Below the pieces are notes generated by a model. The model saw only the letters and a program-made list of their open reading frames with translations. It made no database searches and was not told the DNA's origin. A DNA stretch of 64,000 bases from an uncultured delta proteobacterium. GTDB taxonomy: Bacteria > Desulfobacterota > Zymogenia > Zymogenales > Zymogenaceae. Position numbers and translations under genes: made by a program. Every line of letters starts with the position of its first letter. Position 1 is the first letter of the stretch. The DNA lies in the NCBI GenBank assembly GCA_963735595.1, contig CAVTLK010000002.1:795420-859419 (forward strand). Direction: 5' to 3'. Positions 15,715 to 58,424 of the stretch are shown here, piece after piece.

Positions 15715-15875
15715 GATAAGAGGTTGTCATTGCGAGCCGCCGAAGGCGGCGTGGCAATCTCGGACGATAGTGATAAGAGGTTGTCATTGCGAGCCGCCGA
15801 AGGCGGCGTGGCAATCTCGGACGATAGTGATAAGAGGTTGTCATTGCGAGCCGCCGAAGGCGGCGTGGCAATCTC
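15715..15875 (+). repeat. Tandem array of a 57-bp unit (2.8 identical copies) containing a REP-like palindrome
   Basis: gataagaggttgtcattgcgagccgccgaaggcggcgtggcaatctcggacgatagt starts at 15715, 15772 and 15829. Confidence 0.95.
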
Positions 15876-52785: not shown

Positions 52786-53226
52786 ATGATCATAGAAACC
52801 GGAAAGATCGTCGAGATTACCGCGGCGGATACAATTGTCCTGGTTTCCCGAAACTCGGCGTGCGTGGGGTGCGCGTCAAAAAACGCGTGCCATGCCTTCG
52901 GGACAAACAGCGAGGCACGGATCATCGTCAGCAACGAAATCGGCGCGAAGATCGATGACGTGGTGGAGATCGGCGTGGCCGAGGGCGGGTTGGTGGCGGC
53001 CTCGTTTATCGTCTACATCCTGCCTGTGGCCGCGCTCTTTGTCGGCGCGGGGCTGGGAACCTGGATTGCCCGCAGGAACGGGATTGACATCGGGGGTATC
53101 TCGGCCCTCATGGGGCTGTTGTTCCTGGGGGCGGGGTTCGCGGCCATCCGCCTGATGGACCCGTACCTGAAAAAGAAACATACGCTGAGGCCCCGGATCA
53201 TCCGGGTCGTGGAGGAGTGCCGGTGA
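52786..53226 (+). CDS. RseC/MucC family membrane protein
   Basis: [21 protein letters not shown], two TM helices, YILP. Confidence 0.85.
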
Positions 53227-53687
53227 AGAAGGAGGGCGTTAAAGTAGTAACCGCAAACAAGAAGGCGCGGGCGGACTATTTCATCGAGGATACCTTCGAG
53301 GCGGGCATGTCGCTGATGGGCACCGAGGTGAAGTCGTTGCGGGAGGGGCGCGCCAACCTGAAGGACTCGTACGCCCGCGAGAAAGACGGCCGGATCGTCC
53401 TGGTGGGGGCGCATATCAGCCCGTACCCCTTCGGAAACCGTGTCAACCACGAACCGGAGCGGGAGCGGCAGCTTTTACTGCACAAACAGGAGATACGGCG
53501 GCTGCTGATAAAGACCCGGGAGCGGGGCTTTACGCTCGTGCCGCTGGCCATCTACTTCAAGAACGGTAAGGCCAAGATCGAGATAGGGCTGGGCAAGGGT
53601 AAGGCGCAGTACGACAAGCGCGAGACGATCAAGAAGCGGGAACAGGATCGCGAGATGGAACGGGCCATCCGGGGCAGGGGGAGGTAA
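53223..53687 (+). CDS. smpB: SsrA-binding protein
   Basis: [35 protein letters not shown]. Confidence 0.97.
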
Positions 53688-53832: not shown

Positions 53833-54188
53833 GGGGGCGATCTGGGTTCGACGGGGATATTTGATCTCGGTGCTGCATGCCGGGGAGCTTACCTACCCGT
53901 TAATCATGGTGGGAATAAACACAAGCGCAGACAATTACGACTACGCTCTGGCCGCTTAAGTCAGGCCAGCGTCCGTTCAATTTCGCTCCTGCCGGGGTTG
54001 AAACGGGCGTGACCAATGCGGGATAAGCCGATCACAACTCCCGGAGTGATCGGACGAAAATAAACGGGATCCCCTTATAGAGACCCCGCCGTTAGGGGCT
54101 CGTGGGGCGGTACAATATAACGGCTGAGCATGGAGATGTATCGGGTGAAGATCTTCGGACGCGGGTTCGATTCCCGCCGCCTCCACCA
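53833..54188 (+). ncRNA. ssrA: tmRNA; tag reading frame ADNYDYALAA* at 53927-53959
   Basis: 5' GGGGGCG..GGTTCGAC; 3' GCGGGTTCGATTCCCGCCGCCTCCACCA; follows smpB. Confidence 0.97.
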
Positions 54189-54294
54189 AAAACATTCCCG
54201 TCCTTTATTTAGCCCGGACTATACCGGGAGAGAAGGGAAGGGTTTGGTTATTCCTGTATGGGTGACTTAATACCCTATCCATTCGAACGTGTCT

Positions 54295-54729
54295 ATGAAT
54301 GACCTTGCTAAACTAATCATGTCCGCTCTGACACTCCTTGGCATTGGAGGTATTGCAGGAGGTTACATAACCTATCTGCTTGATAAAAAGAAAGAGCGTG
54401 AATTCAAGGTATTAGAGCAGAAGGAGAAAAGGTATAAATCCTGCCTCCTATATATGGACGCTTTTTTCGAGCCGAAGAATATTAAGTACCTTTCTAGCCG
54501 ACAACCAGATATAAGTAGTGCTCAGGATATTATCGAGTATCTGAAAATGGAATTCCATGAAATGATACTCTATGCTTCAAAGGACGTGATATTTTCTGTT
54601 AAGAACTTCATCGAGAACCCCACCTATAAAAACTTCCTGGAGACAATTATTACGATGCGGAAGGATTTGTCGACGAAAAACAATGACTTGGATTTGGAAA
54701 AAATAAGGATTGAACTGAAGATAAAATAA
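54295..54729 (+). CDS. AT-rich hypothetical protein with an N-terminal TM helix
   Basis: LIMSALTLLGIGGIAGGYITYLL then a charged helical domain; directly after ssrA. Confidence 0.65.
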   Translation: MNDLAKLIMSALTLLGIGGIAGGYITYLLDKKKEREFKVLEQKEKRYKSCLLYMDAFFEPKNIKYLSSRQPDISSAQDIIEYLKMEFHEMILYASKDVIFSVKNFIENPTYKNFLETIITMRKDLSTKNNDLDLEKIRIELKIK

Positions 54730-54815: not shown

Positions 54816-54960
54816 TGTCATCGCGAGGGCCCGAAGGGCCCGTGGCGATCTCGGACGAATTCATAGGGCTCGAACCGTCTGTTCGGCGACTCTCTTGTTC
54901 CTGTTCTCCGATAGCGTCCGGGATTGCCACGTCGCTTCGCTCCTCGCAATGACAACCTCT
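54816..54960. repeat. Left inverted doublet of REP-like palindromes
   Basis: Forward copy 54816-54858 tgtcatcgcgagggcccgaagggcccgtggcgatctcggacga; inverted copy 54915-54960. Confidence 0.9.
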
Positions 54961-55004
54961 GAATCGACTTATACGGCGTAGAATGGATTGCTGGCTGCGT
55001 AATA

Positions 55005-55292
55005 ATGAATAAGCAATACTACGTGTACATTATGACCAACCGGACCAATAACGTCCTGTATACCGGCGTAACGAATAACCTGTTAAGAAGGGTTTATCAA
55101 CATAAGGAAAAGATAGTCGATGGGTTTACCGAGAAGTATAACGTTACTAAGCTTGTCTATTACGAGATTTCAGAAGACGTAAGGAGTGCAATCCAGAGAG
55201 AAAAGCAGATCAAGGACGGTTCACGGACTGATAAGAAGAAGCTTATTTCAGGTTTCAATCCTCAGTGGGATGATCTCTCGACGGAAATCTGA
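55005..55292 (+). CDS. Small standalone GIY-YIG nuclease family protein
   Basis: YYVYIM...LYTGVTNNLLRRVYQH, GFTEKY, LVYYE, AIQREKQIK, NPQWDDL. Confidence 0.92.
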   Translation: MNKQYYVYIMTNRTNNVLYTGVTNNLLRRVYQHKEKIVDGFTEKYNVTKLVYYEISEDVRSAIQREKQIKDGSRTDKKKLISGFNPQWDDLSTEI

Positions 55293-55360
55293 CGTACTTT
55301 CCCAATAAATACGAAAAGACATATATGCGTGGTCTATTGAAGGTCGGACATTCAATAGCG

Positions 55361-55479
55361 TGTCATTGCGAGGAGCGAAGCGACGTAGCAATCGCGGACT
55401 TTGTAATTATTTATTATCATGTTATAATGTACATCGGCATCCGAGATCGCCACGCCCCCTACGGGGGCTCGCGATGACA
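55361..55479. repeat. Right inverted doublet of REP-like palindromes
   Basis: Forward copy 55361-55399 tgtcattgcgaggagcgaagcgacgtagcaatcgcggac; inverted copy 55440-55479. Confidence 0.9.
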
Positions 55480-55572
55480 CTCCCTTGGATAGCGAACTTT
55501 CTCAACGATCTGGGTGGAGCTACGTTCCCTGATCTTCCTTTGACGCCGTCTTCATCTTGAAAGGAGTAATCC

Positions 55573-55974
55573 ATGGATGAATCCAAGATCAAAAAAGAGG
55601 TGTGGGAAACGGTTCAAACCCTCAACCGTCTCTGGACGGTCGAAGGCAGAGCTGACGAGCTGGTGAATTACTTCCACGAAAAGATGGTGGCGGTAACCCC
55701 CACCGACCGCCTGCGCCTTGAGGGGGGTGCGGCATGTGTTGCGGGGTGGAAGGGCTTTACCGATGCCGCGAAGATCCACTACTGGGAAGAGACCGACCCA
55801 CAGATCGAGGTGTTCGGAAACGGTACGTTCGCCGTAGTGACTTACTATTATGACATGGCCTTCGATATGGGCGACCTAAAGATCACGACGGGGGGGCGCG
55901 ACATGATGTCGCTGGTCAACGAGGGCGGCAAGTGGCTCGTCGTGGCTGACCAGTTTTCGCCGTATCCTGTATAA
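55573..55974 (+). CDS. NTF2-like (DUF4440-type) protein
   Basis: LVNYFHEKM, AVVTYYY, GRD, GKWLVVADQFS; AAGGAG RBS. Confidence 0.75.
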   Translation: MDESKIKKEVWETVQTLNRLWTVEGRADELVNYFHEKMVAVTPTDRLRLEGGAACVAGWKGFTDAAKIHYWEETDPQIEVFGNGTFAVVTYYYDMAFDMGDLKITTGGRDMMSLVNEGGKWLVVADQFSPYPV

Positions 55975-56846: not shown

Positions 56847-58424
56847 ATGTCCACTGAAACGAAAAAGACGACATCGACGGCGCCCGGCAGGGTCTGCGCC
56901 GGGAAATGACCGAGATCAACCTCCTGTTCGAGATCAGCCGAACCCTGGATATGAGCATCGACCTCAAGGACGTGCTCGGGCCGGTCCTCGAAAAGATGGC
57001 CCATCACATGTCGATGCTTCGGGGCACGATCACGATCCTGGACCGCAAGACCGGGGAGATATTTGTCGACGAGGCATACGGCCTGTCGGAATCCGCAAAA
57101 GGAGCGGGGCCGATACAAGATCGGGGAGGGCGTAACCGGGCATGGTGGTGAGGACCGGCAAACCGGCCGTTGTTCCACGGGTCTCCAGGGAGCCGCTTTT
57201 TCTCGACCGCACGGGAGCGCGTACCGGCCCCCAGAAACAGGACGTTTCGTTTATCTGCGTGCCGATCATGCTCGAAAACGAGGTGATCGGTACGCTGTCG
57301 GCCGACCGCCTGTTTGACGAGGCCGTTTCCTATGATGAGGATATCAGGCTGTTGTCCATCATTGCCTCCATGATCGCCCAGGCGGTGACGATCAGGCAAT
57401 CGGCCCAGGAGATCATCGAGGAGAACATACGGCTTAAGGAAGAGCTCAAGGACCGCGTACCGGCCGAAGAACATCATCGGCAACTCAAAGGCGAATGCAG
57501 GAGGTCTACCGGCACATCGCGCAGGTCGCCGGGACCAGTCCACCACCGTATTGATCCGGGGCGAGTCGGGGACCGGAAAGGAACTGGTGGCGCACGCTAT
57601 CCATGCCGAAAGCGACCGCGCGGACAGGCCTTTCATTAAGGTCAACTGCGTCGGCACTGCCGGAGGGCGTTATCGAGAGCGAGCTCTTCGGGCACGAAAA
57701 AGGCGCGTTTACCGGTGCGAATCAGACCAAAAAGGGACGTTTCGAGCTTGCCCACGAGGGCACGATATTTCTGGACGAGGTGGGCGATCTCACGCCCGCG
57801 GTCCAGATCAAGCTGCTGCGGGTAATCCAGGAGCGGGAGTTCGAGCGGGTGGGGGGAATGAATACCATTTCGACGGACGTGCGGATCATCGCCGCCACCC
57901 ACCGCGATCTCGAACGTGCTTATCGCCGGGACCGGTTCCGGGAGGATCTCTATTTCAGGCTCAATGTCTTTCCCATCCACGTGCCCCCGTTGAGGGAGCG
58001 TCCCGACGATATCCTGCTGTTGGCCGACCATTTCGTCGAGAAATACAGCACCAGTCACCATAAGCGGATACGGCGCATCTCCACTCCCGCCATCGATATG
58101 ATGATGGCATACCACTGGCCGGGTAACGTCAGGGAACTGGAGAACACCATCGAGCGGGCGGTGTTCTTGAGCGAGCGACGGTGTCATCCACGGGCGTAGC
58201 CTGCCCCCCACGCTACAGACGGCCGAGGCCTCGGGAACGCAGCCGCACGGCGGCCTCTCGACGCCGTGGACGCCTTTGAGCGGGACATGATCCTGGACGC
58301 GCTGAAATCGGCCAGGGGCAATCGGGCCGAGGCGGCCAGGATACTGGGTATCTCCGAGCGGCTCATGGGCCTGCGCGTCGGTAAACATGAGATCGATCCA
58401 AGACGATTTCGTACCAAACGGTAG
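56847..58424 (+). CDS. NifA-like GAF + sigma-54 AAA+ + HTH activator (several frameshifts)
   Basis: GAF (SFICVPI...IGTLS), [46 protein letters not shown]. Confidence 0.9.

Follow-up and report, generated by a model that had tools for sequence, protein, structure and literature searches.

A GIY-YIG gene between bulged hairpin repeats: a probable Ssn-family nuclease and its proposed cognate sites in an uncultured Zymogenaceae bacterium

What does a minimal GIY-YIG nuclease do when its gene stands between inverted doublets of hairpin repeats, and does it spread those repeats? The question arises from a locus at 54816..55479 of a 64,000-nt stretch of DNA (the window, from a genome referred to as G000), where four hairpin repeats bracket a 95-aa open reading frame in the arrangement A> <B gene B> <A (Table 1). 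The original prediction had described this bracket, and it is borne out: the open reading frame matches the Pfam family GIY-YIG (PF01541) with an E-value of 1.9e-18, and all four copies were located. The pairing of the copies was also described correctly, in that the near-identical inner pair (B1/B2) forms a 39-nt inverted repeat with 95% complementarity and the outer pair (A1/A2) a 47-nt inverted repeat with 83%, the ATCGC/GCGAT stem being present in both outer copies. A1 and B1 make up a 137-bp heads-out doublet, with related doublets at the same locus of the congeners G001 and G002, and B2 and A2 make up a 117-bp doublet, the spacer of which is that of a dispersed A-B subfamily. The G+C content of the gene is 41%, compared to 60% for the window.

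Table 1. Features of the ssn locus and its surroundings (window positions) and copies of the related MITE elsewhere in G000 (contig:positions).
Feature	Position	Strand	Description
smpB	53217-53687		context, ahead of tmRNA and the ssn locus
tmRNA gene	53833..54188	+	context; downstream DNA varies between congeners
146-aa ORF	54289..54729	+	38% G+C; directly behind tmRNA; N-terminal hydrophobic stretch
repeat A1	54816..54850	+	TGTC tag, ATCGC/GCGAT stem, GA bulge, upper hairpin
repeat B1	54922..54954	-	ATTGC/GCAAT stem
ssn gene	55005..55292	+	95-aa single-domain GIY-YIG nuclease; Y8/Y19/R29/E66/N85 intact; signature K70-DGSRTD-K77
12-bp inverted repeat	55334..55358	.	behind the ssn gene; not scored as terminator
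repeat B2	55361..55393	+	inner right copy
repeat A2	55445..55479	-	outer right copy
degenerate MITE terminal inverted repeat	55497..55512	-	3 mismatches; starts 34 bp outside the A2 head
DUF4440/SnoaL-like gene	55573..55974	+	conserved right-hand anchor
MITE copies in G000 (among others)	C2:509543-509768, C2:648616-648806, C4:503313-503505, C5:604746-604943		

The neighbouring 146-aa open reading frame has no Pfam or NCBIfam match, is broken by a stop codon in G001 and was not found at the ssn locus of G002 and a third congener, G003. In G002 (locus L127, C2:54340-54960), part of the tmRNA 3' end recurs ~590 bp further downstream with a 152-aa gene between the two copies, an arrangement reminiscent of an integration scar. 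Elsewhere in the window (57000-58200), a gene that reads in translation like a sigma-54 activator is apparently broken into overlapping open reading frames, possibly by frameshifts or assembly errors.

Nucleases of the Ssn family are single-domain GIY-YIG proteins of ~95 aa; CGTC-tagged hairpins flank their genes, and the enzymes cleave single-stranded DNA (ssDNA) a few bases to the 5' side of these hairpins (Chenal et al. 2025, PMC11893778). Hairpin recognition was shown biochemically for four Ssn enzymes, and SsnA requires sequence besides shape (PMC11893778). The same paper describes the arrangement NTS-ssnA-NTS and compares it to IS200/IS605 transposases and REPs (PMC11893778). Both the nuclease-hairpin pairing and the REP/HUH analogy are thus already published, and the headline claim of the original prediction is not new. 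The present locus resembles the Ssn/NTS system of Neisseria meningitidis in the protein length of ~95 aa, the catalytic Tyr/Tyr/Glu, the YGTC-tagged hairpins on both sides and their dispersal genome-wide.

Sequence comparison revealed that the window protein shares 45 identities over 98 positions (46%) with the product of an unannotated N. gonorrhoeae gene (L139), with E-values of 3e-30 pairwise and 3e-20 in the plasmid-collection search that retrieved it. L139 served as a stand-in for meningococcal SsnA and was taken as the ssnA orthologue because it has canonical NTS flanks and Y6, Y17 and E64 at the numbering of Chenal et al.; these residues align with Y8, Y19 and E66 of the window protein. 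With this stand-in, the similarity falls within the family limits of E < 1e-10 and ≥75% coverage against Neisseria SsnA. Moreover, the protein stays below 150 aa and has PF01541 as its only domain, the catalytic Y8, Y19 and E66 are in place, and two YGTC-tagged repeat copies stand on each side of the gene within 500 bp. Y8, Y19, R29, E66 and N85 are kept in all 103 aligned homologues. The AlphaFold model has a pLDDT of 93.6, and its best fold matches are the GIY-YIG proteins 1zg2 and Slx1. Supplementary Data 4 of Chenal et al. (PMC11893778) gives YES for the CDD family cd10448, that of the Ssn nucleases, in the genomes of two close homologues, Nostoc favosum CHAB5714 and Legionella jamestowniensis. 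Searches of phage records, PDB sequences and NCBIfam gave no match to the window protein. As its residues D71 and D76 are unusual and the G001 orthologue (78% identity) carries G21D, this copy of the gene may be decaying.

The exact repeat pattern GTCATYGCGAG-N-GCRATC has 108 copies in G000, compared to none for the reversed control, and a looser pattern found 169 repeats, compared to 7, 3 and 5 in three shuffles; the family is thus not a product of chance. The repeats combine a 5-bp stem with a G·A bulge and an upper hairpin that varies, and the third stem pair covaries among the 108 copies (92 T-A, 15 C-G, one T-G and no C-A). The stem starts with AT, and C or T precedes GTC in 162 of the 169 repeats, among which there are 34 heads-out doublets. 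Folded as ssDNA, the A copies were better than their shuffles (z -1.9 and -2.5), and the B copies were not (z +0.5). No Rfam match was found on the repeats. G000 has three intact ssn paralogues and one remnant, with 51-59% identity to the window protein; all three intact paralogues lie within 200 bp of repeats, and the four HUH (Y1_Tnp) transposase matches of the genome lie 9.6-85 kb from the nearest one. The remnant is a fourth, 5'-truncated ssn copy (C3:109495-109725), adjoining a repeat with a nested insertion. Tandem arrays of the same family were also observed, with three nearly identical head-to-tail copies at a 57-bp period in the window (15715-15875) and four copies at C5:441935-442337.

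Compared to the SRM of the Ssn system, which is an unbroken 8-bp stem, the repeats described here have a shorter stem interrupted by a GA-containing bulge, and the published SRM search pattern matches none of the 169, the four copies at the locus included. Since SRMs stand at 71% of homologues (PMC11893778), the mismatch sets these repeats outside the published pattern but does not count against the protein's place in the Ssn family. The repeats are also like the CGTC REP superfamily, as far as the relevant parts of Di Nocera et al. 2013 (PMC3733652) describe it, in the CGTC/TGTC tag, the AT at the stem start, the predominance of inverted heterodimers and the absence of an HUH link. Those parts give 8-9-bp stems and 4-5-nt loops in four families and name no dedicated transposase, and the present repeats, with their 5-bp stem plus bulge, do not fit this text description of families 1-4. 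Inverted doublets at the gene and genome-wide, and several enzyme-repeat pairs that can coexist in one genome, recall the RAYT/REPIN systems in the portions of Bertels and Rainey 2011 (PMC3116915) drawn on here. However, RAYTs are described there as IS200/IS605-type tyrosine transposases with excision footprints in reads; the repeat-flanked gene here encodes no HUH/Y1 transposase, as a RAYT or REPtron would, but a GIY-YIG hydrolase.

The association of gene and repeats extends far beyond this genome. Among the best 80 of at least 578 homologues from GTDB genomes (58-73% identity, four redundant loci included), bulged GTC repeats were found at 73 loci, with 51 ATTGC-, 19 ATTCT- and 3 ATTTC-type stems followed by GA, and seven loci had no repeat by the rule used. 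The homologues with bulged repeats come from many phyla. As the original prediction had expected, the flanks are strongly enriched: repeats occur in 126 of 154 proximal 400-bp windows, compared to 3 of 138 distal ones. Homologues at 43-55% identity are mostly flanked by perfect-stem, NTS-like repeats. Similar repeats may also occur in Rickettsia and alphaproteobacteria. The papers listed by a full-text search for the first 11 letters of the repeat were unrelated, and among those listed by further searches none besides Chenal et al. dealt with Ssn repeats; the bulged hairpin class missed by the published SRM pattern may be new, as far as figures and papers outside these searches do not already show it. 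At a further locus, on a Planktothrix plasmid (L141), the genes on the two sides of a CT-class ssn gene are annotated as MmeI-type restriction-modification and as DISARM drmA.

The class of the repeat follows the protein. On a quick tree of 110 proteins, from which seven rows had been dropped as duplicates or fragments, repeat class changes 13 times, compared to 49 times when shuffled, and the most informative alignment columns include 71-73 and 76. Among the 95 classified rows, Trp or Tyr at residue 72 occurs in all 39 non-GC rows and in none of the 56 GC rows, whereas Trp at residue 76 occurs in all 13 perfect-stem rows and in none of the 82 bulged ones; the window protein, with G72 and D76, differs from the perfect-stem enzymes (W/Y72, W76) at both positions. 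Applied to 98 new loci (80 metagenomic, 15 viral and three from the Melioribacter genome G041), a rule based on these two residues was right for 80 of the 84 with a classifiable repeat and wrong for four, the other 14 having no classifiable repeat. G041 itself has GC-, CT- and perfect-class ssn genes, and wherever the repeats could be classified they were of the type proper to the gene. The perfect/bulged split has a support of 98 with all columns and of 41 without columns 70-77, and in view of this drop we do not claim that the bulged enzymes form one clade. Two or three class switches (L054, L067 and L099) appear independent, though well-supported branches do not force this reading. Residues 72 and 76 are thus a candidate recognition code for repeat class, which may only mark clades.

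Family likeness, intact catalytic residues, tight repeat association and the covariation of residues 72/76 with repeat class together indicate that the gene probably encodes an Ssn-family nuclease with these repeats, a bulged-stem class, as its cognate sites. By analogy with SsnA, it is likely that the enzyme recognises its bulged hairpin and cleaves on the 5' side of the tag. It would bind the hairpin in single-stranded DNA only, read the YGTC tag plus the base after the stem, and hydrolyse the strand a few bases upstream of that tag; as none of the 169 repeats fits the SRM pattern and SsnA needs sequence besides shape, this cut position is extrapolated. The cuts would feed host repair and recombination, through which ssn genes and repeats may be gained, shuffled and lost piecemeal, and both would in addition travel as cargo of DDE-type MITEs.

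Comparison with the congeners gave no support to the symmetric four-copy bracket as one unit, as it had been taken. The anchors, smpB-tmRNA and the SnoaL-like gene, are kept in all three congeners, and what lies between them differs in each: in G001 the ssn orthologue has a pair of A-B doublets to its left but no doublet to its right; what remains in G002 is a single doublet, a truncated A copy and the 3'-terminal codons of ssn; G003 has neither gene nor repeat. The exact four-copy pattern recurs at only three of 56 two-sided homologous loci. With ends that differ between congeners, no target-site duplication and paralogues as diverged as 51-59% identity, the locus also departs from an autonomous insertion sequence. 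We infer that the bracket was put together locally from two parts, the left doublet being the older and the right one belonging to a MITE-borne subfamily.

Several observations bear on this subfamily. Homology of the aligned A copies extends beyond the doublet, and a 15-bp motif lies 33-35 bp outside nine of 18 A heads, A2 among them, compared to two of 1500 random sites. The five of 117 non-A heads with the motif, at 38-43 bp, are all partners of A copies, and across the whole genome the motif by itself shows no enrichment (40 vs 41 and 28). The elements form a MITE family of ~190-230 bp with 15-bp terminal inverted repeats and the A-B doublet inside, which sits in terminator-like palindromes and is also found in G001; several are flanked by exact direct repeats of their palindromic targets, 10-26 letters long. 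In its ~15-bp ends and long duplications of palindromic targets this family is like IS-derived MITEs with cargo. The A-B doublet subfamily is the cargo of an IS-type MITE, which explains part of the repeat spread. At the locus itself, no partner MITE end was scored on the B2 side. The MITE ends presumably resemble those of the IS1182/IS5 and IS4 families. PF05598, the sole transposase family searched, reached its cut-off in none of five genomes, and an IS1182-type transposase was set aside as the source of the G000 MITE, the one weak match, in G003, being without MITE ends. In G041, three near-identical repeat-ssn-repeat cassettes with different flanks (L038-L040) lie inside an 18-bp inverted repeat. 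A reading of this triplet as self-mobility was rejected, for the shared ends are those of the outer 18-bp inverted repeat, which also bounds an 81-bp gene-less element in the same genome. A single MITE end occurs at L131 in G041, and the 3-bp ATT repeated at the inner ends of the cassettes is too short to weigh.

It could be argued that the nuclease is itself a mobilising enzyme, analogous to the RAYTs, with repeat-gene-repeat units or doublets moving via its cuts; we consider this rather unlikely. In line with it, the outer-end heads point outward in 36 of the 56 two-sided loci, the commonest form is a single inverted pair (15/56), close homologues are scattered over many phyla, and ssn genes occupy 5-6 loci in a patchy manner across four congeners. 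CGTC REPs, too, are reported without a transposase in the cited parts of Di Nocera et al. (PMC3733652). Repeat counts in genomes with and without the gene point both ways: 46-108 repeats occur in the four genomes of the genus, all of which have GC-class ssn genes but are kin rather than independent cases, compared to 0-21 in six other genomes of the family in which no GC-class gene was found and at most 23 in each of 39 other genomes sampled from the phylum, yet 9-21 repeats occur in G004, G005, G008 and G030, drafts of 88-95% completeness in which the gene was not found. Against mobilisation, a scan of the 34 doublets for target-site duplications of 2-6 bp at 36 offset pairs established none (the best excess, for 2-bp duplications, was seven vs 2.1 expected, and lengths of 5-6 bp gave none). 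Empty-site alignment of gene-less alleles at three other ssn loci, which the original prediction had suggested, gave no clean junction, as the spacers were too diverged, and two of the three alleles keep repeats, so that loss fits as well as gain. L036 and L037, considered as two insertions, are identical over all 1501 columns and thus represent a duplicated region with no evidence of insertion. Sequencing runs speak for neither side: the best share was 0.13, and the four of 24 runs that were aligned left ssn nearly all uncovered and gave no joint across the element. The sole multi-copy, near-identical cassette seen is the one inside an unrelated MITE in G041. GIY-YIG enzymes are hydrolases and are not known to join strands, so that spread would depend on host repair or on other carriers, of which this genome and G041 offer examples. 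The transposase reading of the nuclease is therefore weak. Of the proposal that a GIY-YIG enzyme fills the RAYT role, hairpin recognition is supported by the biochemistry of four Ssn enzymes (PMC11893778), whereas dispersal of the repeats by the nuclease is not supported, as no target duplication was established and part of the spread is due to the MITE.

A domesticated host function is not mutually exclusive with a mobilising one. The enzyme might restrict incoming ssDNA during transformation or conjugation, or trim hairpins at forks, like meningococcal SsnA, which reduces transformation by NTS-bearing DNA ~5-fold (PMC11893778); one paralogue locus, moreover, is kept in three of four congeners. 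We regard such a role as possible, if on balance improbable, since only G000 has this locus intact: it is changed in G001, reduced to a remnant in G002 and missing from G003, which together with the truncated fourth copy in G000 indicates turnover rather than conservation. Finally, a UPF0213/Slx1-like repair nuclease could lie by coincidence in a repeat-rich spacer behind tmRNA, where the DNA is variable, and the nearest solved folds are indeed UPF0213 and Slx1. This explanation is refuted by the flank enrichment, and the way repeat class tracks the protein tree also speaks against it; we hold it to be extremely improbable.

An Ssn-family nuclease paired with bulged hairpins thus remains the preferred reading, and it has consequences for the family. 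The published motif undercounts Ssn-repeat pairs: Nostoc favosum CHAB5714, listed by Chenal et al. with an ssnA homologue and an SRM enrichment of 0.84 (Data 4, PMC11893778), has five bulged repeats around its ssn gene (L041). The MITEs caution that an Ssn cassette, even if symmetric or present in several copies, may have been moved by something other than Ssn; a role of Ssn in the spread of CGTC repeats, raised as a question in 2013 and 2025, is possible. A broader picture, which we find doubtful as a whole, would be that a large, multi-phylum Ssn branch pairs with undescribed bulged hairpins, that residues 70-77, after the catalytic-Glu helix, set the hairpin recognised, making specificity readable from sequence and perhaps switchable, and that these enzymes spread "orphan" CGTC repeats by cut-and-host-repair, the repeat-ssn-repeat unit being a selfish element of ~400 bp without a transposase. 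Residues 72 and 76, as a candidate code, offer a testable handle on specificity for enzymes that have been proposed as ssDNA tools.
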